This document shows positions 2,025-14,887 of a DNA stretch of 14,887 nucleotides, piece by piece. Where the stretch lies: IMG/VR virus record IMGVR_UViG_2617270938_000003. One strand, 5' to 3'. Numbering within the stretch: position 1 is the stretch's first letter; every line of letters begins with the position of its first letter. Both the position numbers and the translations under genes were made by a program. This stretch comes from a virus (lineage: Duplodnaviria > Heunggongvirae > Uroviricota > Caudoviricetes). Under the pieces are notes generated by a model, which searched no databases, was not told the origin of the DNA, and saw only the letters and a program-made list of their open reading frames with translations.

Positions 2025-2891
2025 ATGAATCAAAATCCATTCTCATTCTATGACTTTCTTGGATATTTAATACCAGGTGGTTTTTTTATCCTATTAATGT
2101 ATTTCTGTGGTTTGACATTCGATCTAGATATTGTTATTGACTTAAGTGAATTGCTCAGAGGTCAAAGTCAAATCTTTGGCATTTTGAACTACGCTTCAAT
2201 AGTTATTATATCTTATATAGCTGGACATTTTATTTCTATCACGTCAGCATTTTTTATCGAAAAATACATGAATAAAGAATTAGGATATCCTTCCAAATAT
2301 CTATTTAAAAAATTGATAGATACCTCAGAAAGCATTTGTAGCCCATCCTGCGATGAGAGAAGCGCTGATAAAAAAACAAAAATAAAGAATCGCATAATCA
2401 AATGCGTATTATGTCCAATAATACTATGGGATTTTATAACACAAAAACTATGTTATTCTCAATCTCTACCATTTCATTTAGCTAATACAACATGGTTAAT
2501 GATCAAAGAAGGTTATGAGAAAAAGTTCATAACAAATCGCCAATTATTACAAGATAAAAACGGACTTGATGATGATCTCTTCAGATTGGCATATCATTAT
2601 GTTTATGAGTTTTCAAAACAACATCAAACAAAAATTCAAAACTATGTTGCATTATATGGTTTTTGCAGAAACATATGTTTAATCTTTATAATTTCATTTT
2701 GGGTATCAGTTCCAACCTTTATTTATCGATTATGTACTCATAGTGATTATCTTTATAGTTTACTTTCAATAATGCTTAGCTTTTTCTTCGTCTATGTTTT
2801 CTATGTTGGTTTTGTTAAATTTTATAGAAGATATACTTTAGAAGTATTAATGGCATTTGCTGTACTTCAAAGTAACGACATTATTCGTTAA
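2025..2891 (+). CDS. AT-rich polytopic inner-membrane protein of unknown function (prophage moron candidate)
   Basis: ATG at 2025 with GGAGA 6 nt upstream; the track ORF starts at TTG 2001. About four to five hydrophobic helices (e.g. FFILLMYFCGL, IVIISYIAGHFISITSAFFI, ICLIFIISFWVSVPTFIY, LSIMLSFFFVYVFYVGFV) flank a charged central segment. Codon usage is markedly more AT-rich than the flanking yfdR-like and xis/int genes. Confidence 0.6.
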   Translation: MNQNPFSFYDFLGYLIPGGFFILLMYFCGLTFDLDIVIDLSELLRGQSQIFGILNYASIVIISYIAGHFISITSAFFIEKYMNKELGYPSKYLFKKLIDTSESICSPSCDERSADKKTKIKNRIIKCVLCPIILWDFITQKLCYSQSLPFHLANTTWLMIKEGYEKKFITNRQLLQDKNGLDDDLFRLAYHYVYEFSKQHQTKIQNYVALYGFCRNICLIFIISFWVSVPTFIYRLCTHSDYLYSLLSIMLSFFFVYVFYVGFVKFYRRYTLEVLMAFAVLQSNDIIR

Positions 2892-2932: not shown

Positions 2933-3139
2933 ATGCTGAACCTCGATTGTGTTCCTATCTCAACTTATTGCAAAGAAACTGGCGAAACTCCTGAAGCAAT
3001 AAACAAACGTGTACAGCGCGGTGTTTGGCGTGAAGGTGTTCAGGTTTTAAAGGTTGAAGGCGTTAAGGAGAGGTGGATTGATCTTAGTGAGGTTGCAAAA
3101 TGGGCCAGACAAAACTGCTCAAACTACCGCGCGGCGTAA
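2933..3139 (+). CDS. Putative excisionase / small DNA-binding recombination directionality factor
   Basis: Small basic ORF directly upstream of, and overlapping by 40 nt, a tyrosine integrase gene. ATG at 2933 has GGAGA 5 nt upstream; alternative starts at 2894 and 2921. The W/R-rich C-terminal half (RGVWREGVQVLKVEGVKERWIDLSEVAKWAR) looks like Xis-type winged-helix proteins. Assignment is from position and composition, not a confirmed match. Confidence 0.5.
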   Translation: MLNLDCVPISTYCKETGETPEAINKRVQRGVWREGVQVLKVEGVKERWIDLSEVAKWARQNCSNYRAA

Positions 3140-4272
3140 CAATCAGGAAACACCGCCAGGGAGAAACGATCAATATAACTTTCACCTACAAAGGAGTTAG
3201 ATGTCGTGAGCCGCTTTCCAATCTGGAAGTAACACCAAAGAACATTAAATACGCCGAGCGTACACTCGGCGAAATCCATAATAAGATCGAAAGGGGAACA
3301 TTCATTTATGCAGAATATTTTCCCCGTTCTGCTCGTTTGAAAATTTTTGGTAATGCTGCTGCAGGCAAAACGGTAAAGATGTACCTGGACGAATATCTTG
3401 AAATCTGCGAAACAAGAAAACTTTCACCCTCTACGATTGGTGGCTATAAAAAATGCCGTAGTGCGTTAGCCTCACTTCACATTTGCCCTGCAAGTGAATT
3501 AACACCAGCAACCCTGAAAGCGTGGATTCAAAGCCAGAAAACAACCTTAAAAACCATTCGCAACCAGTTATCTTTCCTACGGTCAGCACTTGATGAAGCC
3601 GTGACCGATGGGGTACTTCAAATTAACCCCGTATCGTTAGTAACAGCTTCGCGCTACCAAAGTGATAAGTCAGAAGCAGAAAGCAGCTATGTGGTTGATC
3701 CGCTATCACCAGCAGAAGTTGATGCATTACTAGCAGCAGCCGGAAACAAACAATGGGAAAATCTGTTCCGGTTCGCCATACATACAGGCCTGCGTAGTTC
3801 TGAATTATGTGCCCTACGATGGCATGATATCGACTTTGTTGGAAAAACAGCCCATGTTCAGAGCGCAAGTGTTGTCGGAGTTATCAAAGGAACAAAGACA
3901 AAAGCCGGTACCCGTAAAGTTGAACTGACTGAAGAAGCAATGTTGGCGTTGATAAACCAGAAGCCATTTACATTCATGAAGGATGCTACTGTCTTTGAAG
4001 ATCCAAAGACCAATAAACCCTGGGCAAGTGCTGATGCAATTAGGAAAAAAGCATGGGTGCCAACATTGCGAAAAGCAGGTATTCGTTACAGAAACCCATA
4101 TCAAACCAGGCATACATTCGCCCCCAGCCATATCAGCCGGGGAGCAAACCTGTTTTGGCTTGCGGCTCAAATGGGCCATAAAGGGCCTGAAATGTTATTC
4201 AGGCACTATGGACAATACTTGAAAGAGTATGATGGGAGGGCAAGTATCAAGGATAAAAAGGCTTTATTTTAA
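3100..4272 (+). CDS. Phage tyrosine integrase (site-specific recombinase, lambda-Int superfamily)
   Basis: 390-aa ORF with GAGG 8 nt upstream. C-terminal catalytic signature of tyrosine recombinases is present: TGLRSSEL (box I Arg), HxxR in NPYQTRHTFA, and the nucleophile region GHKGPEMLFRHYGQY. The N-terminus resembles arm-binding domains. Confidence 0.85.
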   Translation: MGQTKLLKLPRGVTIRKHRQGETINITFTYKGVRCREPLSNLEVTPKNIKYAERTLGEIHNKIERGTFIYAEYFPRSARLKIFGNAAAGKTVKMYLDEYLEICETRKLSPSTIGGYKKCRSALASLHICPASELTPATLKAWIQSQKTTLKTIRNQLSFLRSALDEAVTDGVLQINPVSLVTASRYQSDKSEAESSYVVDPLSPAEVDALLAAAGNKQWENLFRFAIHTGLRSSELCALRWHDIDFVGKTAHVQSASVVGVIKGTKTKAGTRKVELTEEAMLALINQKPFTFMKDATVFEDPKTNKPWASADAIRKKAWVPTLRKAGIRYRNPYQTRHTFAPSHISRGANLFWLAAQMGHKGPEMLFRHYGQYLKEYDGRASIKDKKALF

Positions 4273-4881
4273 GTCATTATGCCAATCGTCTACTGTTTGA
4301 AACCAAATTTTTAACCTTTGCATAAAGGTACGATCCTTTTTGGGAGGATGGTACCTTTGAAAAGAAGTATGTAACGCTTCGATAACTCCCATACAAGCAT
4401 CAATTACTTCTTGTGCTTTAACCGGGCGATCGGCATCTGAAAGCTTGTGAGCGACCTCACAATCCAGAGTTGCTTTCTCTAGTACAGATGAGAACACCTC
4501 GTCAGGTATATACAGTCCTCTGCTTTCCAAAATGCAAATCAGTTTGGAAACTTGTTGAGCTTTAGCCAAGATAGTTAACAAGTATGAAACAGAAGCCTTT
4601 GTTCTATCCTTTTGCAACCTTAACAATCGATGCTTTGATGCTCTAATTTTAGGTTGAGTTGTCTGACTGAGCCAATAGTTAGAAGAAATATCAGAAATTT
4701 CAATAACTAACTTTGAAATAGCATCAATAATTGATTTCGATTCAGAACGTGTCGCCAGTTTTACAGAATTATTGTACGCAACTCGCCATCCAATGAAAAC
4801 TAAGCAGACGCTAACTACTGTGATACACCACGAATACTGTCCTATTTGTGCTACTAATGACATTGGTTCCGTACTGATCAA
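4264..4881 (-). CDS. Single-pass membrane protein, third gene of a GHKL-ATPase/STAS-like operon
   Basis: One N-terminal transmembrane helix (YSWCITVVSVCLVFIGW) followed by a soluble domain of about 170 aa. Probable TTG start at 4881 with AAGAGG 6 nt upstream (ATG alternative at 4863). A 10-nt gap separates it from the upstream gene; its 3' end overlaps the integrase stop convergently. Confidence 0.55.
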   Translation of the reverse strand: MISTEPMSLVAQIGQYSWCITVVSVCLVFIGWRVAYNNSVKLATRSESKSIIDAISKLVIEISDISSNYWLSQTTQPKIRASKHRLLRLQKDRTKASVSYLLTILAKAQQVSKLICILESRGLYIPDEVFSSVLEKATLDCEVAHKLSDADRPVKAQEVIDACMGVIEALHTSFQRYHPPKKDRTFMQRLKIWFQTVDDWHNDLK

Positions 4882-4891
4882 CTATCGCCTC

Positions 4892-5218
4892 TTATACTCT
4901 TTCTGGTTGTGCTAAATCAATAAATTTATCAATCTGTTCTTTGTAGAACGGAACATCACTTTTTATAATCAAACGTGCTTTAACGTTGGCTTTAGGTATC
5001 CCTTCCTTACGGATGAGACCTCCAAACGCCTCTTCTAAGAAAGAGGAACCAACACCCAGTGCTATACCGCGAAAATCAACCACAATCTCCTGTTCAGTAC
5101 CCTTCAGCGCAGGCACCAAAAACTCTCTACGAAATCTTTCCGCACTGTGTGGGCTATCCGTTGTGTAACGTCCGAAAGGTGTTCTGGAGAACTCCTTCGC
5201 TATGACGATATTTCTCAT
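4892..5218 (-). CDS. Small STAS-like (anti-sigma-antagonist-like, DUF4325-type) protein
   Basis: 108-aa ORF; ATG at 5218 with AGGAGA 7 nt upstream, lying inside the end of the upstream GHKL gene. The motif VVDFRGIALGVGSSFLEEAFGGL resembles the STAS/DUF4325 core. Fold assignment is from motif resemblance only. Confidence 0.55.
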   Translation of the reverse strand: MRNIVIAKEFSRTPFGRYTTDSPHSAERFRREFLVPALKGTEQEIVVDFRGIALGVGSSFLEEAFGGLIRKEGIPKANVKARLIIKSDVPFYKEQIDKFIDLAQPERV

Positions 5219-5222
5219 AAAA

Positions 5223-6134
5223 TCATCTCCTGGGAACCAGCGACCATTGTAGTAAAGTACCCGGTATGTACTCAGCTAGCTTCTCACATCGAGGACTACT
5301 GTCATTAGAATTATAGCTATAACGAGCCCTTCCTGTTAGTATCAGAAGTGTCTCATTATCCTCACAACCTGCCCCAATAGGTCTCTTGATATCTTCAGAG
5401 CCATTTCCCCGTCCGGAACCAACAAAGCGGGATTCCCCTACTAACATAGCTCTTTCCACAGAAGATACTTCGTTTTGAATGCTATGACCATCACCATTAG
5501 GCACGAAACTTCTATAAATCCCCAATCCAAGGTCACAAACGATAAAAACGACTTTATTTTCATCACGATTGAACCAAGCGCACTGCCACCATCGTTTACC
5601 TTTGAGAAGCTGAATATCTGACTCGAACCCCTCATCTTCATACGCATGATGAGAAACATTGAGCAAAGCTTCACTAATCGCTGTCAGCAGTAAGCCTAAC
5701 TGTTCATTATTAAGCAGAGCACTTTTCTGCAGCATGAGTACTGTTTCAACAATATGCTCGTAAGGTTCGACAGCTGACTGAAAGTATCGTTCCTCCCTCG
5801 TAAGTGCATTCAGTTTCTCTTCTGTGCCAGCAAGCAAAGCACGAGCAAGTCCAGTACCAACGATCCATCTATGCCCAGATGGGTTATCATCCTTTTTAGG
5901 CCATTTAAAACGTATAAAATTAGGGTCCCGGGTTAAAAATTGAGCTCTATTTACTATGGCAAAGAACAGTACCGATGCCGCAGCTGAGGCAAATTTTACC
6001 TTGGACAAATCAACTATAACTCGACCTTTATTTTTTACTCCAATCGATTCAATCGAGTTGATGAAGTTCAATGTCCCAGCCCTAGAATCATCTGAGTAAA
6101 TGCAAAATTTGCTTGGGGGTACCAGTATGGTCAT
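5223..6134 (-). CDS. GHKL-superfamily (HATPase_c) ATPase/kinase-like protein with N-terminal extension
   Basis: 303-aa ORF. All three Bergerat-fold motifs were read directly from the minus strand: N-box EALLNVSHHAY (5640-5672), G1 box DLGLG (5520-5534) and G2 box GSGRGNG (5400-5420). Residues 40-56 (VDLSKVKFASAAASVLF) resemble the STAS phospho-acceptor region. No strong SD at the ATG. Confidence 0.7.
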   Translation of the reverse strand: MTILVPPSKFCIYSDDSRAGTLNFINSIESIGVKNKGRVIVDLSKVKFASAAASVLFFAIVNRAQFLTRDPNFIRFKWPKKDDNPSGHRWIVGTGLARALLAGTEEKLNALTREERYFQSAVEPYEHIVETVLMLQKSALLNNEQLGLLLTAISEALLNVSHHAYEDEGFESDIQLLKGKRWWQCAWFNRDENKVVFIVCDLGLGIYRSFVPNGDGHSIQNEVSSVERAMLVGESRFVGSGRGNGSEDIKRPIGAGCEDNETLLILTGRARYSYNSNDSSPRCEKLAEYIPGTLLQWSLVPRR

Positions 6135-6387: not shown

Positions 6388-6484
6388 CGTCTATTGTAGT
6401 CTAGTGAGAATTGCTGAGAACTACGAGTTATGGCACCCTGAATGGGACCCACGAAGATGGGTCCTAAAATCGAGGGTCCCAAAC

Positions 6485-7714
6485 ATGGCCAAAATCGCTA
6501 AGAAGCTCACTGACACTGAAATCAAAAGCACCAAACCTGCCGAAAAAGAGGTTAACCTTTTTGACGGCGATGGTTTGCTGTTGCGAATCGCTCCCCTGGC
6601 GAAGGGAGGGAAGAAAAATTGGTATTTCAGATATGCAGTGCCTGTGACCAAAAAGCGAACTAAGGTGAGCTTAGGAACCTATCCTCACCTTACACTTGCG
6701 AAGGCACGAGCTTTACGTGATGAATACTTGTCGTTGCTTACAAATGGTATAGACCCCCAAGTTCATAACAACCAAAAAGCCAATGCACTGAAAGATGCCA
6801 CGGAACATACATTTCAAGCAGTAGCCAAGAAGTGGCTTGATGAGAAAGTCAAAACGTCAGGCATCTCCCAAGATCATGCTAACGACATCTGGCGAAGCCT
6901 AGAGAGAAATATCTTTTCCACATTGGGTGATACCCCAATTAAGGAGATTCGCCCTAAAATGCTTAAACAGCATTTAGAACCCATAGAAAAACGAGGTGTC
7001 CTTGAAACACTTCGCCGCATCATATCCCGCCTGAATGAAATTTTCCGCTATGCAGCAACAGAAGAACTCATAGAATTCAACCCGGCAGACAACCTGGGGC
7101 AACGGTTCAGCAAGCCAAAAAAACAGAATATGCCAGCATTACCCCCTTCCGAACTCCCTCGCTTCTTGGTTGCTCTAAACAATGCTTCTATCCGTTTGGA
7201 AACAAGGCTACTGATTGAGTGGCAACTTCTCACATGGGTTCGCCCAGGTGAAGCTGTTCGCACAAGATGGTCAGATATTGATATTGAAACTGGCATGTGG
7301 AACATCCCGGCGGAGTTTATGAAAATGAAGAAGCCTCACAAAGTTCCACTGAGCAAAGAAGCTTTGCGAGTTTTGGATTTAATGAAAGTCATCAGCGGGC
7401 ATAGAGAGTGGGTGTTCCCCAGTATCAAAGCTCCACTCAATCACATGCATGAACAAACAGCTAATGCGGCCATAATCCGTATGGGTTTCGGAGGTGAGCT
7501 TGTAGCTCACGGTATGCGATCCATTGCTAGAACGGCTGCTGAGGAGTCTGGCAAGTTTAGGACTGATGTCTTAGAAGCCGCCCTTGCCCACTCGAAGAAA
7601 GATGAAATAATTGCAGCCTACAATCGTGCAGAGTATCTCACTGAACGGGTGGTTCTCATGCAATGGTGGAGTGACTATGTTTCGTCTCAAAAATGCAAAG
7701 TTATTGCCGCATAA
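6485..7714 (+). CDS. intA: P4-type tyrosine integrase, IntA-like (CP4-57 family), tmRNA-associated
   Basis: From ATG 6485 (GAGGG upstream) the protein MAKIAKKLTDTEIKSTKP...NLFDGDGLLLRIAP...WYFRY...TKKRTKVSLGTYP aligns along its length with E. coli IntA as recalled (LTDTEIK, DGDGL, DIWRSLER, ALETLRR, KKNMP, MQWW). It sits immediately 3' of an ssrA 3'-end sequence as in E. coli. The track ORF starts at GTG 6404. Confidence 0.85.
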   Translation: MAKIAKKLTDTEIKSTKPAEKEVNLFDGDGLLLRIAPLAKGGKKNWYFRYAVPVTKKRTKVSLGTYPHLTLAKARALRDEYLSLLTNGIDPQVHNNQKANALKDATEHTFQAVAKKWLDEKVKTSGISQDHANDIWRSLERNIFSTLGDTPIKEIRPKMLKQHLEPIEKRGVLETLRRIISRLNEIFRYAATEELIEFNPADNLGQRFSKPKKQNMPALPPSELPRFLVALNNASIRLETRLLIEWQLLTWVRPGEAVRTRWSDIDIETGMWNIPAEFMKMKKPHKVPLSKEALRVLDLMKVISGHREWVFPSIKAPLNHMHEQTANAAIIRMGFGGELVAHGMRSIARTAAEESGKFRTDVLEAALAHSKKDEIIAAYNRAEYLTERVVLMQWWSDYVSSQKCKVIAA

Positions 7715-7776
7715 CTCTCCCATGATGGATTAACTATCTTGATTTAGTTAAAGAATTAATAATCACACCATTAACC

Positions 7777-7826
7777 TATGTGGACTAAGCATAGCCATTT
7801 ACAAATGGGGACATTGAGTCCACATA
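7777..7826. repeat. 50-bp two-fold symmetric site (nested inverted repeats around a central AC dinucleotide)
   Basis: TATGTGGACT-aagcatag-CCATTT-AC-AAATGG-ggacattg-AGTCCACATA. Outer 10-bp arms are perfect reverse complements, as are the inner 6-bp arms; both share the same centre (7801/7802). It lies in the intA / serine-recombinase intergenic region, about 170 bp upstream of the recombinase start. Confidence 0.6.
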
Positions 7827-7996
7827 ACGAAAGCTGTCGGTCATATCAGCTAAATAATTCACATCTCTTCTCGATTATCATACACCTCGAAGATCTACCA
7901 AATTCGCTCTAATCAATGATAAAACAGTTGAATTCGGTTAAAATTTGATCAATTTTATCCTCTACATTGTATTGAATCACCCATGAGGTTTCGTGC

Positions 7997-9553
7997 ATGG
8001 CTAGCGAAAATGACAAAAATCATAGAGTTAGGGTCGCGCAGTACTTGAGGATGTCTACCGACCATCAGCAATATTCTTTACATAATCAGTCCGAATATAT
8101 CAAAGATTATGCTGAAAAGAACAATATGGAAATCGCTTATACCTACGATGATGCAGGTAAGAGCGGAGTCAGTATCGTAGGCAGGCATTCTTTGCAGCAG
8201 TTACTTAGCGATGTAGAACAAAAGAAAATAGATATACAGGCTGTATTATTTTATGATGTGAGCCGTTTTGGTCGTTTTCAAAATAGTGATGAAGCGGCAT
8301 ATTATTCCTTTCTATTTGAGAGAAATGGTGTAGATCTTATATATTGTTCCGAACCTATACCCACTAAAGATTTCCCTTTAGAGTCCTCTGTTATACTGAA
8401 TATAAAAAGATCTAGTGCTGCATATCACAGCAGGAATTTATCTGAAAAGGTATTTATAGGGCAAGTAAATTTAATAAAGCTTGGTTATCATCAAGGCGGT
8501 ATGGCTGGTTATGGGCTGAGACGTCTTTTAGTAGACGAAAATGGCATAGCTAAAGAAATATTGAGTTTCCGCAAAAGAAAGAGTATTCAAACAGATAGGG
8601 TAATATTAATTCCGGGACCAAAAAATGAAATAAAAATTGTAAATAGAATATATGATCTCTTTATAGATAATAACGTCCCAGAATTCATTATTGCTGAGAG
8701 ATTAAATGAACAGAACATACCTGCAGAAAATGGAACATTATGGACTCGTGCAAAAATACATCAAATTTTGACAAATGAAAAATATATTGGAAACAACATA
8801 TATAACAAAACCTCATCTAAATTAAAAAGTAGGCTTGTAAAAAACCCCAAACATGAATGGGTTAGATGTGACAAGGCATATAAACCTATTATTTCAAAGA
8901 AAAAATACAATAAAGCTCAAGAAATAATTCAGCTCCGATCCATTCATTTGACTAATGAAGATCTATTAGAAAAACTAAAACAAAAATTAGAATCTAATGG
9001 AAAACTATCAGGCTTTATCATTGATGAAGATGATACAGGCCCTTCATCTTCTGTTTATAGAACCCGATTTGGTGGTCTTTTAAGAGCATATACTTTGATT
9101 GGTTATAAGCCAGAACATGATTACAGCTATCTCAAAATAAATGAAGCACTAAGATCATTTCACTCAGAGATAATTGAGGATTTTAAGGGTGAAATTTTAA
9201 AAAGTAACTGTCATATAGACGAGTATAAATATGCCCCAATGCTTTACATCAATGATGAGTTTTTAATTTCCATCCTTGTTACTAAATGCATACATATGAA
9301 ATCAGGTAAACTTAGATGGAAAGTCCGGTTTGATAACTCACAGAAAGCAGACATAACAATTGTTATACGAATGAATTCACAAAATATTTCACCTCTTGAT
9401 TTTTATATCATACCAAAGATTGAAAACGAATATAATAAAATGTGTATGACGGAAACAAACAACATTCGATTAGATCTCTATAGATTTGATAATCTTGATA
9501 AACTTCTACAAATTATTACTCGCATGAAAGTGAGGGAACTATATGCTGCCTGA
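7997..9553 (+). CDS. Large serine recombinase (resolvase/invertase catalytic domain plus recombinase domain)
   Basis: N-terminus RVAQYLRMSTDHQ matches the serine-recombinase active-site motif (YxRxSTxxQ, nucleophile about Ser20, codon near 8054). Resolvase-like block ...DDAGKSGVSIVGRHSLQQLL...VLFYDVSRFGR and recombinase-domain-like block GYHQGGMAGYGLRR...LWTRAKIHQILTNEKYIGN follow. No classical CxxC zinc-ribbon seen in the C-terminal third. GAGG 8 nt upstream of ATG; very AT-rich. Confidence 0.8.
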   Translation: MASENDKNHRVRVAQYLRMSTDHQQYSLHNQSEYIKDYAEKNNMEIAYTYDDAGKSGVSIVGRHSLQQLLSDVEQKKIDIQAVLFYDVSRFGRFQNSDEAAYYSFLFERNGVDLIYCSEPIPTKDFPLESSVILNIKRSSAAYHSRNLSEKVFIGQVNLIKLGYHQGGMAGYGLRRLLVDENGIAKEILSFRKRKSIQTDRVILIPGPKNEIKIVNRIYDLFIDNNVPEFIIAERLNEQNIPAENGTLWTRAKIHQILTNEKYIGNNIYNKTSSKLKSRLVKNPKHEWVRCDKAYKPIISKKKYNKAQEIIQLRSIHLTNEDLLEKLKQKLESNGKLSGFIIDEDDTGPSSSVYRTRFGGLLRAYTLIGYKPEHDYSYLKINEALRSFHSEIIEDFKGEILKSNCHIDEYKYAPMLYINDEFLISILVTKCIHMKSGKLRWKVRFDNSQKADITIVIRMNSQNISPLDFYIIPKIENEYNKMCMTETNNIRLDLYRFDNLDKLLQIITRMKVRELYAA

Positions 9554-10439
9554 AAAAAATGAATTCCCAATAATTCAAATTGAGATTGCAAAAATAAAAT
9601 TTCTTAACCCACGAACAAGAAATAAGTTAGTGCATGAAGAAATAAAGGAAAGCATAAAAAAAAGAGGATTAAGCAAGCCTATAAGCGTAAGAGCTATTGA
9701 TGAAGGCGATTTCAAATATGCTTTAATTTGTGGTCAAGGGAGAATAGAGGCTCTCGTTGCATTAGGTGAAACTATTATTCCAGCAATTATAAGAGATGTA
9801 TCAGAAGAAGATGCTTACGTTATGAGTTTAGTTGAAAACATTGCAAGGAGAAGACCACGTTCTAATGAGTTATTACAGGTGATTAAAGACATGAAAATCA
9901 GAGGACTTTCAGACTCCGAAATAAGTGAGATTACTGGATATTCATCGAACTGGGTGAGCAGTATTAATATGCTACTTGATAAGGGAGAGCATAAACTTCT
10001 CTCAGCAGTCGAACGGGGTAATTTGCCTCTGTATCTCGCAGTGCAATTTGCAAGATGTGAAACTGAGGAAGCACAAGATATTCTTACCGAAGCATATGAT
10101 AAAAAATTAATAAAAAGTCGGGACATTATAAAGATAAAACACATTCTAAATCAAAGAACAGTTGGGAATAAAGGTGCAAAAGCAGCCGGATTTTATTATC
10201 ACAAACCATCAAAAAGGATGACTGCAGAGGAGTTGATTGAGCTTTATGAAAATAGTATCGCTGAACATAAATCTGTTTATAACAACTCAAAATTCATAAA
10301 AACCAACCTACTAATAGTAAATGAGATTTTTAACATCATAATGATGAATAAAAGCTTTCAACATATACTTGAACAAGAGAATCTTTCAGAACTACCATCT
10401 CAGATATTAACCCCAGTAAACAAAGAGGTATTAAAATGA
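9543..10439 (+). CDS. ParB/Srx-fold protein with HTH (ParB-like N-terminal domain), 298 aa
   Basis: Collinear with the chromosomal ParB N-terminal domain: ...NPR..., GQGRIEA at 9732-9752 (ParB GERRxRA-type arginine motif), IPAIIRDVSEEDAYVMSLVENIARR (ParB box ENLQR-like), then an HTH-like LSDSEISEITGYSSNWVSS. Start overlaps the recombinase stop by 11 nt, with GAGGGA 6 nt upstream. Confidence 0.75.
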   Translation: MLPEKNEFPIIQIEIAKIKFLNPRTRNKLVHEEIKESIKKRGLSKPISVRAIDEGDFKYALICGQGRIEALVALGETIIPAIIRDVSEEDAYVMSLVENIARRRPRSNELLQVIKDMKIRGLSDSEISEITGYSSNWVSSINMLLDKGEHKLLSAVERGNLPLYLAVQFARCETEEAQDILTEAYDKKLIKSRDIIKIKHILNQRTVGNKGAKAAGFYYHKPSKRMTAEELIELYENSIAEHKSVYNNSKFIKTNLLIVNEIFNIIMMNKSFQHILEQENLSELPSQILTPVNKEVLK

Positions 10440-11332
10440 TTCAGATACGTTTTGGCGATAATTTTATTTACCTGGAAACTAATAAGTTAATTCCATCTAA
10501 GGAATTATTAGAAAACGTAAAGCGAAGCCATAAATATCATCAAATAGTTACCTCTATCGAAAGCTTAGGTATTATTGAACCAATAATAGTATTCTATGAC
10601 AAAGATAAAGATGTCACTAAGATACTTGATGGCCATTTAAGGGTTGAGGCTTTAAAAGACTTAGGTATAGAAAAAGCTCCATGTATACTTTCGAGCATAG
10701 ATGATGCTTTCACTCCTAACAAACAAGTGAATCATATAAATGTAGTTGAAGAACATAGAATGATAATTAAGTCTCTGGCAAAAGTATCAATTGAAAAACT
10801 TAGTGCTGCTTTGGGCATATCTGTTGATGCCATAAAAGATAAAGCGAATGTGATGAACGGCATAGATCCAAGTGTAATTGCGAAACTTTCTGATAAACCT
10901 ATACCTAAGGCTACATTTGACGTTTTGAGGAAAATGAAGCCAATTCGCCAAATTGAAGCAGTCGGTACAATGATTAATTTTGATAATTATAGTAAAAAAT
11001 TTGCAATGAGCATCTTGGATGCAACACCGGCATCGATGATAGTAAATAAAGGGAAAAACACTCCCTATAAAAAGGATATAAAAAAAACCATACTTCGTCT
11101 GGAACAAGAAATGGCAACAACTTCGGAAGAAACGAAAAAGCTTCAAACCGAGTATGGTTCAGATATGTTGAAATTCGTTATAATCCAGTCATATATTAAT
11201 AAATTACTTGGCAATTCTAAAGTTCTTCATTGGTTCTTAGAAAACGAGGTTGATTATCTTAATGAGTTAAAAAGAATTTCTAGAATAAATTCTTTGGATG
11301 ATAAGACTCTTACTGAAAACAGCAAGTCATAG
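10436..11332 (+). CDS. Second ParB/Srx-fold protein, divergent paralogue-like, 298 aa
   Basis: N-terminal segment IIEPIIVFYDKDKDVTKILDGHLRVEALKDLGIEKAPCIL (DGHLRVEA at 10628-10651) has the ParB/Srx arrangement of a beta-strand, Gly/Arg motif and hydrophobic helix. ATGA start/stop overlap with the upstream gene, AGAGG SD. Same length as its neighbour. Confidence 0.6.
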   Translation: MIQIRFGDNFIYLETNKLIPSKELLENVKRSHKYHQIVTSIESLGIIEPIIVFYDKDKDVTKILDGHLRVEALKDLGIEKAPCILSSIDDAFTPNKQVNHINVVEEHRMIIKSLAKVSIEKLSAALGISVDAIKDKANVMNGIDPSVIAKLSDKPIPKATFDVLRKMKPIRQIEAVGTMINFDNYSKKFAMSILDATPASMIVNKGKNTPYKKDIKKTILRLEQEMATTSEETKKLQTEYGSDMLKFVIIQSYINKLLGNSKVLHWFLENEVDYLNELKRISRINSLDDKTLTENSKS

Positions 11333-12560
11333 TCATGTTTTATATAGCCTAAATAAACCAAGAAGTATACTTACACAACGACCTTCACGCCGAAGAAGCT
11401 GTCAGATACGCCAGCAACCAAAGCATTACGTTTAAGTGTCAGTCATTGATACGAAGGGATAACTGCGTATCAGCAGCCGGACATTGAGTCGAATAAAGGC
11501 TGGTAGAGAGGGACAGTTCTGTGTCACCGGGAGATTCGTCAGAAACATCAGCGGCAGAACAGATGAACCAGCAATTGGTAGTGCACAGAAAACTCTCCAG
11601 TATTTAATTATTCAACTTAACACTAAAAAAAATCACATATTTAATATCATAATTTTTCTTTGGTCTACGTATGCGAGAGTTATTGTGGCTTTAACCGGGT
11701 ATTAGGAGTCGTTTCAGATAAAAGATGTTCTTCGATTCGACTGGACTTGGTAATAGCAATAAGTAATCGTTAATATTGAAGGACGAAAGGCTACTTCAAA
11801 ACAAAGTAACCTTTCCAATATTCCCATCTATGGGACAAGTGGTACATTAACTGCACATAGTGCAGGATACATATGACATAAAACTTTTTATTTATGGCAT
11901 ACATTATAAATAACTTGTATTTTATGAATGTCAATAGGTTCTTGTTTAATACTTTTAAAATAATTAATTGATTGTTTTTATTATAGCTTCGCTTGTACAA
12001 GCGAAGATCCTATTGTTCTTGAATGAATAATGCCAATTATAAGAGAAGCAAGGGCTAACTCTGCGAAGCCGCTGCGCTTGCTTCTTCGAGTTCCCCTTGC
12101 TTTTCTGCCCTTCGGTTAGAAAAGAAGCCAAACTGCTACCAACCTTGAATCTCTATATTTTTGAATAGACAAACATTACCCGCTCCCTTAATCACCACTA
12201 TCAAACATAAAAAATCATCTTACAAATAACCCCATACACATCATTTTAGATTGCGACCTTATTAAATTAAAAATTCAACCTTAGATGGAATTTAATGTAC
12301 AAGGAGTGTCCTACTGTAACGGAGAATTTTAAACATTAAAAATTACAACTATGGTTTGTCATAGCCTGTACATCTATTCACCTCATGCATATGCACTAAG
12401 AAAGCTTTTTTGAATACTGGAGTTGTCCCTGCTAAAACGGACACGGCTAATTAACTGCTAATATGGCATCACGATATTCGCGTGGCGATTTCATGTTCAA
12501 CCCCTTGTGTGGATGCAGATTATTATAATCCTCTATCTATTCTGCCATTGTTTCCATCAT

Positions 12561-12767
12561 TTAGACTGCATCCAGCAGATCATCTACGTACACATAATCC
12601 CGCTTGAACGTCTTTACAAACGATTCTGCCATGCCGTTACTTCCCGGACTGCGTACTGGTGTAGTACACACGATGAACCACAGTGAACTAGCGAATGTGC
12701 GCGTGGCATCGGCTGTGCAGCAATTATGCCAATGACACTGGCTCCATTGACGGCAATGACCTGACAT
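12561..12767 (-). pseudogene. Remnant of an IS3-family (IS2-group) transposase orfB
   Basis: Translation ...TRTFASSLWFIVCTTPVRSPGSNGMAESFVKTFKRDYV matches the DDE-glutamate region of IS2 InsD (...[38 protein letters not shown]...) as recalled. The reading frame is only 68 codons, with neither the N-terminal catalytic region nor the normal C-terminus intact. Confidence 0.6.
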
Positions 12768-12927
12768 CTACAATCCCGCTACAAAGCATTTACTCCATGA
12801 GTCATTGCACTTGCTGAGCTACACGAACACACTAAAACCAGATAATAATTAATCGCTGTATAAGCTCGTAACAAGCGGAACTTTAAGGCAAAATAGGGCC
12901 ATCTTCCACCTTCACAAAGTTACGCTA

Positions 12928-14475
12928 ATGGCCAGAAAACCTAAAGAAATCAAAACAGACCCGTTAGAGGTCATCCTGTGGAAAGCGGCTGACAAGCTAC
13001 GTAAGAACATTGATGCAGCCGAGTACAAGCATGTCGTGCTGGGCCTGATTTTCCTTAAGTATATTTCTGATTCTTTTGAATCTCATTATGAGTTGCTGAA
13101 GGCTGGTGAAGGCGAGTTCGCAGGCGCTGACCCGGAAGATAGAGACGAGTACACCGCTTACAACATTTTCTTTGTCCCTGAGCTTGCACGCTGGAACTAT
13201 CTAATATCTAAGGCAAAGCTACCCGAAATCGGTAAGCTGGTTGATGATGCTATGGAGCTTATCGAAGCGGGTAACCCACAGCTAAAAGGTGCGCTGCCGA
13301 AAGTCTACGCTCGCCAGAACCTCGACGCAACTGTGCTGGGTGAACTGATAGATCTGATTGGCAACATTGCACTGGGAGATGCCAAAGCGCGTTCTGCTGA
13401 TGTATTAGGCCACGTATTCGAATACTTCCTTGGTGAATTTGCACTGGCAGAAGGCAAACAGGGCGGTCAGTTCTATACGCCAAAATCCATCGTAAGCCTG
13501 CTGGTTAACATGCTGGAACCCTATAAAGGCCGAGTCTTTGACCCTTGCTGCGGTTCCGGTGGTATGTTCGTTCAGTCAGAAAAATTTGTTGAAGCGCATC
13601 AGGGAAATATTGACGATATTTCGATTTACGGTCAGGAATCCAACCAGACCACCTGGCGTCTGGCAAAAATGAACCTGGCTATCCGGGGTATCAATTCAGA
13701 ACACGTCCGCTGGAACAGTGAAGGCTCATTCCTTAACGATGCCCACAAAGATCTAAAATCTGATTTTATCATTGCCAATCCACCGTTTAACGTGTCTGAC
13801 TGGTCCGGTGAGCAGCTTCGTGGCGATGCCCGTTGGCAATACGGTATCCCACCTACCGGGAATGCTAACTTTGCCTGGATGCAGCATTTTCTGTATCACC
13901 TGTCGCCAAAAGGTCAGGCTGGTGTTGTACTGGCAAAAGGGGCTTTAACATCTAAAAGTTCTGGTGAAGGTGATATCCGTGCCGCACTGGTAAAAGATGC
14001 CAATGTGATTGACTGTATCGTAAATTTACCTGCAAAACTGTTCCTGAACACCCAGATCCCTGCGGCGTTATGGTTTATGCGTCGTGATCGTGAAAATAGC
14101 AGCCAATATCGTGATCGCAGTAAAGAAATTCTGTTTATTGATGCCCGGAATTTAGGCCATTTAATTAATCGTCGAACCAAAGTCCTGTCTGACTACGATA
14201 TTAAAACCATAGCCGATACCTACCATAACTGGCGTAACAAAGGTGGCGACTACGAAGACGTCGCTGGTTTCTGTGCGTCAGTAGACATTGCTGAAGTTGC
14301 TAAACTCGATTATGTGCTGACACCTGGCCGTTATGTTGGTCTTGCTGATGAAGAAGACGATTTCGACTTTAAAGAACGCTTTACGGCTCTTAAAGCTGAG
14401 TTTGAAGCGCAACTGGAAGAAGAGGCGCGTCTGAACAGAGCCATCGTTGATAATCTGGCGAAGGTGGTTTTATGA
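12928..14475 (+). CDS. hsdM: Type I restriction-modification system DNA methyltransferase subunit HsdM
   Basis: 515-aa ORF with the N6-adenine methyltransferase motifs: AdoMet-binding motif [13 protein letters not shown] and catalytic motif IV NPPF ([12 protein letters not shown]). Typical HsdM N-terminal helical region and acidic coiled C-terminus; stop overlaps the next gene's ATG (ATGA). Confidence 0.9.
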
Positions 14476-14518
14476 GTAGGTGGAGAAATTTTTGTATAAC
14501 TGAATTAGCAGATTTTTG
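14472..14518 (+). pseudogene. hsdS: 5' stub of hsdS (type I specificity subunit) truncated by IS1 insertion
   Basis: ATG at 14472 overlaps the hsdM stop, with AAGGTGG SD upstream. It encodes [16 protein letters not shown] and then runs straight into the IS1 terminal sequence at 14519, hitting a stop seven codons later. Confidence 0.6.
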
Positions 14519-14887
14519 GGTAATGACTCCAACTTATTGATAGTGTTTTATGTTCAGATAATGCCCGATGACTTTGTCATGCAGCTCCACCGATTTTGAG
14601 AACGACAGCGACTTCCGTCCCAGCCGTGCCAGGTGCTGCCTCAGATTCAGGTTATGCCGCTCAATTCGCTGCGTATATCGCTTGCTGATTACGTGCAGCT
14701 TTCCCTTCAGGCGGGATTCATACAGCGGCCAGCCATCCGTCATCCATATCACCACGTCAAAGGGTGACAGCAGGCTCATAAGACGCCCCAGCGTCGCCAT
14801 AGTGCGCTCACCGAATACGTGCGCAACAACCGTCTTCCGGAGACTGTCATACGCGTAAAACAGCCAGCGCTGGCGCGATTTAGCCCC
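14519..14887 (-). mobile_element. IS1 insertion sequence (partial; continues beyond window end)
   Basis: Begins with the characteristic IS1 terminal sequence GGTAATGACTCCAACTTATTGATAGTGTTTTATGTTCAGATAATG. The following DNA is the reverse complement of the insB end of IS1; the encoded protein ends ...[23 protein letters not shown], as in IS1 InsB. Confidence 0.9.
14534..14887 (-). CDS. insB: IS1 transposase InsB / InsAB' C-terminal portion (5' part lies beyond the window)
   Basis: Minus-strand frame encodes ...[88 protein letters not shown]. The frame stays open upstream to the window edge. Confidence 0.85.

Follow-up and report, generated by a model that had tools for sequence, protein, structure and literature searches.

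Introduction

Two described systems come closest to the gene studied here, a 288-codon gene at positions 2025 to 2891 of a 14,887-nucleotide (nt) stretch of the tailed-phage record IMGVR_UViG_2617270938_000003, which we refer to in its full length as the window. The first is Csx27, an accessory protein of the type VI-B1 CRISPR systems. Papers citing Makarova et al. 2019 describe the Csx27 family as four-transmembrane (4-TM) proteins that are encoded with natural-transformation genes and are predicted to form a channel for single-stranded DNA (ssDNA). The second resides in P2-like phages, in which the gpA-gpQ position is a defense hotspot according to two experimental papers. For the P2 hotspot, the supplementary table of Rousset et al. 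2022 (PMC9122126) lists a system #3, labeled 'DUF4760', with 1,102 occurrences, where protein 1 is a 165-amino acid (aa) DUF4760 protein with one TM helix and protein 2 is a 280-aa '4 TM' protein, MTQNPFSFYDFLGYLIPGG...RRYSLEVLMAFAVLQ (PMC9122126). The P2 systems newly validated in the same work were DUF4238, a three-gene system encoding hypothetical proteins, and DprA+PRTase (PMC9122126).

Here, we compare the window gene with these systems. An original prediction, made from the letters of the sequence, had described its product as an AT-rich polytopic membrane protein and the gene as a likely prophage moron, naming superinfection exclusion, abortive infection, and envelope modification as frequent functions of genes at such positions. 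As judged from sequence comparison, we suggest that the protein represents a branch of the Csx27 superfamily that stands alone, is borne by phages, and has an insert in the cytoplasm.

Results

Remote relation to Csx27

Upon comparing the window protein with the defense-system models of PADLOC, we obtained a match to Csx27 (PDLC01605) with an E value of 1.4e-5, which placed residues 6-268 on positions 4-188 of the 206-position profile, as well as a match to the PADLOC membrane model of type VI-B systems, 'tm_4'. This similarity extended throughout the family, for which we used 141 diverse members, about 30% identical to the query, in all family-wide tests: 100 of the 141 matched PADLOC Csx27 (best E 2.2e-10), 33 matched 'tm_4', and 24 matched the NCBIfam Csx27 model (NF040557) at E ≤ 0.01 (best 2e-6). 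Reversed family sequences, by contrast, gave no match to the PADLOC models (0 of 30). Because the matches were family-wide and the reversed controls empty, the similarity is real and not hydrophobic noise, and the alignments thus speak for a real, if remote, homology to Csx27. Together with the end-to-end match of the window protein to phrog_12528 ('unknown function'), this result overturned the earlier statement that no family could be recognized. A match to PDC-M48A in six members (E about 1e-3) was marginal and was disregarded.

The family is, however, not Csx27 proper, since the window protein scored 14.9 bits (E 0.02) against NF040557, which has an equivalog cut-off of 65 bits, since no cas13b gene or CRISPR array lies nearby, and since the family has an extra cytoplasmic insert. 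We found no CRISPR-like or tandem repeats in the window, where the neighbors of the gene are yfdR and xis/int, and when all ORFs (open reading frames) within 6 kb of the homologues were clustered over 79 genome loci, no cas gene recurred. While Csx27 and the window protein have in common four TM helices, profile similarity from TM1 to TM4, and their nature as accessory genes tied to mobile-element conflict, the latter is about 80 residues longer (288 aa, compared to about 200 aa for Csx27), owing to the cytoplasmic domain between TM2 and TM3; accordingly, 263 of its residues align to 185 profile positions. This insert, 103-154 aa long, is carried by every member and falls outside what the Csx27 profiles, of 206 and 223 positions, cover. 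Unlike Csx27, the family occurs in Proteobacteria, in many other phyla, and in phages. Partners ascribed to the wider Csx27-like family (transformation genes, ubiquitin-system multidomain proteins, WYL-HTH, and a DNA-modification module) were not among the 25 commonest neighbor Pfams, and no cluster exceeded 4 of the 79 loci. A search for true Csx27 sequences with a Flavobacterium member of the family returned, among the 120 matches listed, unnamed family members throughout.

An allele in the P2 defense hotspot

Protein 2 of system #3 was found to be 43% identical to the window protein over residues 1-273 (tblastn E 4e-60), and the two proteins share the N-terminal QNPFSFYDFLGYLIPGG as well as the QNYVALYGFCRN and RRYSLEVLMAFAVLQ motifs. 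In P2-like phages, this allele lies between the portal gene Q and the replication gene A. Both genes are cargo in variable slots of temperate coliphages and both are uncharacterized, with the difference that system #3 occupies the P2 gpA-gpQ position and the window gene a lambdoid yfdR-xis slot.

The DUF4760 gene was located 42 bp 5' of the homologue in 10 of 10 P2-like loci, whereas tblastn detected DUF4760 neither in the window nor in any other fetched non-P2 locus. As DUF4760 is confined to P2-like loci, we regard it as a lineage-specific companion and not as an obligate partner. Longer DUF4760 proteins are listed by DefensePredictor as 'predicted novel defense genes'. A study from 2026 moreover reported that cargo of unknown function from six of eight randomly chosen P4 defense hotspots gave phage protection and that antiviral scores were reached by 15-32% of the unknown proteins of P2; these figures provide a reasonable prior for a defense role.

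Within Escherichia phage vB_EcoM-705R2, the 165-aa DUF4760 ORF (positions 5464-5958 of the fetched locus, + strand) has been left unannotated, with small minus-strand ORFs given there in GenBank. The hotspot of this phage also carries a plasmid-partition pair, ParM/StbA and StbB.

Protein layout and conserved cytoplasmic face

The gene was called as follows:

2001 to 2891, + strand: ORF opening at TTG; the in-frame ATG at 2025 yields 288 aa

2025 to 2891, + strand: coding sequence (CDS) of 288 aa for a predicted 4-TM inner-membrane protein of an unnamed family remotely similar to Csx27; exact sequence WP_032248121.1

2014 to 2017, + strand: Shine-Dalgarno sequence GGAG, 7 nt before ATG 2025, read directly and kept in most homologous leaders

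We take ATG 2025 to be the true start because three lines agree, namely the GGAG at 7 nt upstream, the N-termini of the homologues, all of which start M-x-QNPFS at the position of this ATG, and the RefSeq CDS UTI89_RS27040 ('hypothetical protein') of strain UTI89, which encodes the identical 288 aa. A chance ORF is excluded by the 952 clusters of relatives with strongly conserved motifs that are described below.

Hydropathy indicated a 2 + 2 arrangement of TM helices, at about residues 11-32, 52-79, 213-236, and 244-264, around a central domain of about 120-130 aa that is rich in K and R, with 11 such residues in the segment 80-125. By their charge distribution, both termini and the central domain are cytoplasmic, which leaves only 19 + 7 residues to the periplasm. 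An AlphaFold2 model built from the 141-sequence alignment was all-helical and of the same layout, with a predicted local distance difference test (pLDDT) of 90.3 and a predicted template-modeling score (pTM) of 0.89; an earlier alignment of 14 sequences had given a poor model (pLDDT 65.6). Both approaches thus bore out the hydrophobic clusters at either end of a charged center that had been read from the translation.

2034 to 2078, + strand: motif NPFSxYDFLGYxxPG (aa 4-18) at the predicted cytoplasmic entry to TM1; the most conserved segment (3.47 bits/column over residues 1-18, 141 members)

2055 to 2120, + strand: TM1, aa about 11-32 (hydropathy; model helix 8-32)

2121 to 2177, + strand: short, acidic, predicted periplasmic loop, aa 33-51, with net negative charge and poor conservation (0.60 bits/column)

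2178 to 2261, + strand: TM2, aa 52-79, along which Y64, G67, H68, S74, and E79 form a conserved stripe (hydropathy, alignment, model)

2262 to 2621, + strand: central, predicted cytoplasmic helical domain, aa 80-199, K/R-rich, helical in the model, and present in all members with 103-154 aa

2622 to 2672, + strand: juxtamembrane motif HxxKxQNYVALYGFxR (aa 200-216), leading into TM3 (3.15 bits/column)

2661 to 2732, + strand: TM3, aa about 213-236 (hydropathy, model)

2754 to 2816, + strand: TM4, aa about 244-264, preceded by a periplasmic loop of 7 residues (hydropathy, model)

2811 to 2858, + strand: C-terminal, predicted cytoplasmic motif FxKFYRRFTLExLMA (aa 263-278; 3.17 bits/column)

In the 141-sequence alignment, seven columns were invariant (Y14, Y64, G67, S74, E79, R215, and K265) and about 30 more were at least 90% conserved. 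This conservation was strongly polarized, with four motifs at the boundary between membrane and cytoplasm reaching 3.2-3.5 bits/column, compared to 0.3-0.6 for the periplasmic loops, and the strongly conserved residues D10, Y14, H68, S74, E79, H191, H200, K203, N206, R215, K265, R268, and E273 all lie at TM/cytoplasm junctions. From the positions of the motifs and their conservation, we conclude that the constrained surface of the protein looks to the cytoplasm and the inner leaflet. Within the central domain lie a conserved Y88-P89-S90, two moderately hydrophobic helices that pair at 116-139 and include an invariant-like P131, and H191, and the cytoplasmic linker 97-115 is variable (0.57 bits/column). 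A signal peptide or lipoprotein signal was rejected, as the N-terminus lacks positive charge and coincides with the conserved cytoplasmic motif.

Neither solved structures nor predicted structures of viral proteins resembled the model: a Foldseek comparison with PDB and BFVD gave no match at E ≤ 0.001, and the best hit of a family-profile sequence search of PDB, an inositol 1,4,5-trisphosphate (IP3) receptor, had an E value of 0.48 as expected by chance. Hence, of the topology and structure searches that had been proposed for this protein, the first yielded the expected membrane protein, now with four TM helices, and the second no structural relative.

A swapped accessory cassette next to xis-int

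The gene stands in a variable slot at the int-proximal end of the prophage, with the following features:

1912 to 2901, + strand: swapped accessory cassette, leader and one gene, about 990 bp, guanine-cytosine (GC) content about 0.29, delimited by the homology break relative to the AREA_497 prophage

1392 to 1916, + strand: left flank, yfdR, an HD-domain 5'-deoxynucleotidase and the last conserved gene before the cassette

2933 to 3139, + strand: right flank, excisionase

3100 to 4272, + strand: right flank, tyrosine integrase

2902 to 2917, + strand: short inverted repeat CCCGT...ACGGG at the right cassette junction, read from the sequence

1967 to 1995, + strand: putative promoter-like pair in the cassette leader, TTTATT (1967-1972) and TATATT (1990-1995) with a 17-nt spacer; not called by a consensus scan

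A sister prophage in E. coli AREA_497 was 96.1% identical to the window up to position 1911, in the last codons of yfdR, and 97.2% identical again from 2902, 11 bp beyond the stop codon of our gene. Between these breaks it carries a filling of 610 bp (GC 0.47) with a DUF551 'phage protein' and a 71-aa protein, both unrelated to the window protein. Because AREA_497 matches both flanks and holds other cargo, 1912-2901 is one of the alternatives that can fill a variable slot. At the position of 2902-2917, AREA_497 has an inverted repeat that is likewise GC-rich, CCCGTGTGCAGCGGGC; as no run of T follows the repeat of the window, the latter is not a terminator. A promoter-like pair equivalent to that of the window (TTTATA, 17 nt, TACATT) was present in three other leaders (L108, L110, and L135), whose upstream genes differ, which suggests that the putative promoter travels with the gene.

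The composition of the cassette was likewise distinct. GC was 0.27-0.30 over 2000-2900, compared to about 0.42-0.48 on either side, and the gene itself, with a GC of 0.284 and a GC at third codon positions (GC3) of 0.215, had the lowest GC among the 34 genes that this prophage has in UTI89 (mean 0.498, z = -3.6). Strong AT-richness and distinct codon usage were therefore confirmed by this compositional extreme, which leaves no room for a gene of ordinary composition, and the independent acquisition as a likely moron that they had suggested is supported by the cassette swap. The flanking genes (GC 0.459 for yfdR, 0.459 for xis, and 0.441 for int) are typical for a prophage early region and lie slightly under the E. 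coli average, such that their description as host-like was roughly right. Two more small AT-rich genes in the UTI89 prophage (positions 7988-8212 and 9664-9999 of the fetched locus L001; GC 0.36 and 0.33, respectively, against the mean of 0.50) flank its lysis cassette on either side and are further moron candidates.

The UTI89 prophage is lambdoid, has an HK97-type head module, and is inserted beside glaH/csiD, with the gene order yfdP, yfdQ, yfdR, the window gene, xis, and int. Its lysis genes (L001 8310-9512) lie about 11 kb from our gene (L001 20661-21527). This distance and the PHROG category 'unknown function' set the gene apart from the core phage or lysis genes among which it might have belonged; a lysis protein (holin, antiholin, or spanin) was rejected on the same two grounds. 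From yfdR to int, the stretch was 99.8-99.9% identical in UTI89, S88, APEC O1, IHE3034, and ATCC 11775, that is, in phylogroup-B2 and related E. coli, and it was present as a whole in 181 of 5,426 complete E. coli genomes. Scans of the window for tRNA genes, Rfam families, tandem repeats, and direct repeats revealed nothing relevant.

Family spread and mobility

No Pfam family covered the window protein or, in a scan of the 141 members, the family as a whole. A word-indexed protein search gave 593 relatives, all of them unnamed and from Enterobacteriaceae among the 120 matches listed. A profile search of 1.84 billion cluster representatives (50% identity) returned 952 clusters at E ≤ 1e-3, of which 206 were at E ≤ 1e-30; nearly all were 265-310 aa long and matched over their full length, and 136 of 149 newly returned representatives measured 255-340 aa. 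Scanning genomes, we found members in Gamma-, Beta-, and Deltaproteobacteria, in many Bacteroidota, and in Bacillota, Chloroflexota, Gemmatimonadota, Acidobacteriota, Spirochaetota, and Verrucomicrobiota. Among the 5,426 complete E. coli genomes, 492 (9%) had a DNA-level homologue from one of several allele classes, and at a DNA identity of at least 95%, the ORF was intact in 181.

The foreign composition is a property of the family as well. In 75 of 75 loci from many phyla, the GC of the homologue was below that of its neighbors (mean difference -0.10), and in 28 of the 75 it had the lowest GC3 of its neighborhood. Single-gene low-GC islets of about 1 kb occurred in Pseudomonas/Stutzerimonas (L055, L059, and L078) and in a flavobacterium (L063), with L059 and L078 just downstream of nrdAB; islets that hold the homologue alone argue for a protein that functions without a dedicated partner. 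Consistently, no conserved partner gene emerged, as no neighbor family was present in more than 4 of the 79 loci. In one further islet, from a Pseudomonas metagenome-assembled genome (L054 8343-8810), the product of a second gene is a membrane protein of 156 aa whose match to Pfam 8xMP ('octameric membrane protein family') stayed below threshold (27.3 bits, cut-off 30), and in L079 and L004 unrelated small TM proteins are encoded just 3' of the homologue.

Genomic neighborhoods

Following the homologues across related prophages, as had been proposed, we found them in the same slot. Those of enterobacterial prophages lie directly 5' of xis-int with at least four integrase types and differing upstream genes, in addition to the occurrence in the P2 gpA-gpQ hotspot. 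The integrases were of 390 aa (window), 330 aa (Klebsiella P7641), 336-338 aa (45-46% identical to the P7641 type), and 393/401 aa. Another E. coli/Shigella prophage, located next to yjbM-zur-dinF-lexA, carries a 78%-identical allele, detected in 2,138 indexed blocks, after the same yfdPQR module. This allele is the commonest in E. coli/Shigella (6001-6867 in L179-L183), with an intact ORF in more than 1,000 contigs; downstream lie genes for a PyocinActivator-family protein and a SocA/Panacea-domain protein, with no integrase before the chromosomal yjbM-zur.

Several other contexts featured defense or mobility genes. A Serratia prophage has a candidate HNH/SduA-like nuclease adjoining the homologue. 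In Bacteroidota, elements resembling integrative and conjugative elements (ICEs), with RteC and HTH_17, carry the homologue as cargo, one of them with Hachiman at 3.7 kb and another with YoeB/Phd and an AAA_15/21 ATPase nearby, and one contig has a DpnII/MboI enzyme directly beside it. Two Bacteroidota phages also carry a homologue, one adjoining an NgoBV restriction-modification (R-M) system and the other about 2.3 kb from a BglII R-M system, and P4-cII-like, RES, and HsdM genes were found nearby in this phylum as well. On a marine Bacteroidota contig, an ExbD-family gene (L184 5153-5518) lies about 480 bp 5' of the homologue; it was seen once and is probably a coincidence. The 137 immediate neighbors, scanned with Pfam and PADLOC, were heterogeneous, the commonest Pfams at the ±1 positions of the 79 loci being Phage_integrase (4), Ribonuc_red_sm (3), FAA_hydrolase (3), and Glycos_transf_2 (3).

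Other known systems compared

P22 SieA, lambda/P22 SieB, and T4 Imm are, like the window protein, small membrane proteins, and the window gene, atypical in composition, was acquired independently and is inserted in a temperate phage. Unlike these classical exclusion proteins, its family reaches beyond phages in the form of single-gene chromosomal islets. The SieB family (PF14163) was matched marginally by 1 of the 141 members (E 0.0013) and not by the window protein; one related prophage has a bona fide SieB elsewhere. GtrABC and modification of the Oac/acyltransferase_3 type were rejected, with no Pfam or NCBIfam match for either the window protein or the 141 members.

MotA, ExbB, TolQ, and ZorA have the same topology as the window protein, in that TM2 and TM3 of their four TM helices are separated by a large cytoplasmic domain and the C-terminal helix is cytoplasmic. 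MotA, PomA, and ExbB occupied the top rows of the Foldseek comparison with PDB at chance-level scores, with topology alone in common, and no significant fold or sequence match to stator subunits was obtained.

Other features of the window

Immediately after the integrase, three genes on the - strand (4264-6134) code for a hypothetical protein of 205 aa (phrog_30059), a STAS-like DUF4325 protein of 108 aa, and a protein of 303 aa that weakly matched HATPase_c_2 (phrog_3364); PADLOC models matched none of the three. This segment looks like a separate variable islet, possibly an accessory or defense module, as judged from other strains (L084 and L091) that differ after the same integrase. At positions 6404-11332, another integrase, of P4 type and 436 aa, precedes a block of low GC (0.28-0.36) that encodes a large serine recombinase (518 aa, weakly CcrB-like) and two overlapping 298-aa ParB/Srx-like proteins; this stretch resembles a further island that shares the chromosomal site and is stacked there. 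By reading translations, we further tentatively identified in 12507-14887 an hsdM-like type I R-M methylase gene (12928-14475) between apparent insertion sequence (IS) remnants at 12507-12767 (ORF fragments) and at 14534-14800 (a fragment resembling IS1 InsB).

Discussion

The gene described here is new in that it is annotated as hypothetical only, belongs to no Pfam family, and has no structural relative, while its kind is familiar, namely that of a prophage moron and of cargo in a hotspot, and it is related to a membrane-protein superfamily already described. We propose, with confidence that is evenly poised, that the protein is an autonomous factor against phages or other mobile genetic elements (MGEs) that senses or acts on the cytoplasmic side of the inner membrane and either aborts infection by perturbing the membrane or blocks productive genome entry. 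We infer that the gene would be expressed in the lysogen, that its role would be in defense, and that its mechanism may involve a pore or gating. The cassette 1912-2901 probably constitutes a self-contained mobile moron, made up of a leader, which is AT-rich and bears a promoter-like element as well as a Shine-Dalgarno sequence, and of one gene, whose 4-TM product alone would sense, or act on, something at the cytoplasmic face or inner leaflet. Productive genome entry would then be blocked or, more likely, the membrane would be opened or perturbed, leading to an aborted infection. We place the sensing at the cytoplasmic face because all strongly conserved residues lie at TM/cytoplasm junctions, while a mechanism that needs a conserved periplasmic surface is disfavored by periplasmic loops that are tiny and not conserved; these loops could instead be diversifying specificity determinants. 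More tentatively, and with some doubt, the gene may be the founding case of a single-gene anti-phage system built on a Csx27-superfamily protein, which would detect infection or incoming nucleic acid by way of its conserved site at the cytoplasmic face and gate or perturb the inner membrane. Of the three functions named in the original prediction, exclusion, abortive infection, and envelope modification, the last is the least supported.

A number of observations weigh against a defense function. Association with defense genes was uneven: the immediate neighbors in the 79 loci were mostly housekeeping or polysaccharide genes, with integrase and R-M genes in a minority only, and two of seven sampled Pfam-annotated non-enterobacterial contexts were plain chromosomal islets. 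Apart from the remote Csx27 and 'tm_4' matches, PADLOC offered no usable match for the window protein. In E. coli, Csx27 itself is reported to repress and not to enhance Cas13b interference, without an established mechanism. System #3 is not mentioned in the main text of Rousset et al., and the family motif is absent from the file of cloned constructs of that study (PMC9122126). Neither a promoter within the 108-bp leader nor a terminator ahead of xis was called by the consensus scan, so that the gene could be read through from the early-left operon upon induction instead of being expressed in the lysogen. As no informative fold match was obtained, the idea of a pore or gate draws entirely on topology and the pattern of conservation. 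Last, the literature and supplements that we searched for the protein and for WP_001075212, WP_032248121, and A0A0B1MB33 yielded no mention.

Envelope modification would assign the protein a different chemistry, as a small membrane enzyme acting on a lipid, an undecaprenyl-phosphate-linked intermediate, or a phospholipid, with serotype conversion or receptor masking as the outcome. The int-adjacent slot of P22/SfV-type phages carries gtr and oac, and the ±1 neighbors in the 79 loci included GT2 (3), WecG (2), GT1 (2), epimerases/dehydratases (2-3), and hexapeptide transferases (2). In addition, D10, H68, E79, H191, H200, and E195 at the membrane-cytoplasm interface would be compatible with a metal-dependent active site. 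Yet no member matched an acyltransferase, Gtr protein, glycosyltransferase, or polyprenyl-phosphate transferase, and no such fold was found; polysaccharide neighbors were present in about a tenth of the loci only, and such loci are themselves hotspots of horizontal gene transfer. Furthermore, the gene is solitary, whereas surface modification usually needs partners (GtrA/B/C), and the Pseudomonas nrdAB islets (L059 and L078) have no glycan context. Overall, we consider an envelope function unlikely.

The similarity to Csx27, which is reproducible across models, could alternatively point to a nucleic-acid conduit or regulator as proposed for that protein, that is, a membrane channel or an anchor for ssDNA or RNA that would deal with nucleic acid on its way in or out, through uptake, degradation, or control of a host or phage nuclease, with phage exclusion at most a by-product. 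The ssDNA-channel prediction and the linkage to transformation genes, as given for the Csx27 family in papers citing Makarova et al. 2019, would fit such a role, as would the occasional DNA methyltransferase or R-M neighbors. The associations that it would lead one to expect, with DprA/competence genes, ubiquitin-like multidomain proteins, WYL-HTH, or cas13b, did not recur among the 79 loci, and the 103-154-aa insert falls outside the Csx27 profiles. Moreover, E. coli is not naturally competent under ordinary conditions, and the ssDNA channel of Csx27 is itself a hypothesis. We consider a conduit function unlikely as well.

Patchy distribution, foreign composition, and the toxin-antitoxin genes near some homologues would also be expected of a selfish or neutral passenger, or of an addiction-type toxic protein, that rides recombination-prone slots. 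We find this improbable in view of the very strong purifying selection on the four motifs across phyla, with seven invariant columns, of the full length of most representatives and the intact ORF in 181 complete E. coli genomes, and of the lack of any conserved antitoxin-like partner. A function in the phage life cycle, as a membrane regulator of lysis timing, induction or excision, or DNA injection or exit that is expressed from the early-left transcript only, is highly improbable: the gene shares its strand with yfdPQR and xis-int, and since neither an intervening terminator nor a strong consensus promoter was called, read-through from the early-left promoter is plausible, and in lambdoid relatives it always stands just before xis, but it is absent from a 96-97% identical sister prophage with other cargo, is found in lone chromosomal islets and in ICEs with no phage around, is distant from the lysis cassette, persists in more than 1,000 contigs within an E. 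coli/Shigella prophage context of another kind, and appears to bring its promoter-like element along.

Even if the protein does not serve in defense, its conserved cytoplasmic-face motifs, together with the lack of a partner, a Pfam family, and a structural relative, make it a well-defined target for discovery. If it is a defense gene, it would add to the anti-phage repertoire a very compact, one-gene membrane system that is unusually widespread and whose carriers include the reference strains UTI89, S88, APEC O1, and IHE3034 of extraintestinal pathogenic E. coli (ExPEC). It would then also assign a function to the system that ranks third by frequency in the P2 hotspot table, with its 1,102 occurrences, and, as a tractable relative native to E. 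coli, it would offer a first functional handle on Csx27 in type VI-B CRISPR systems.

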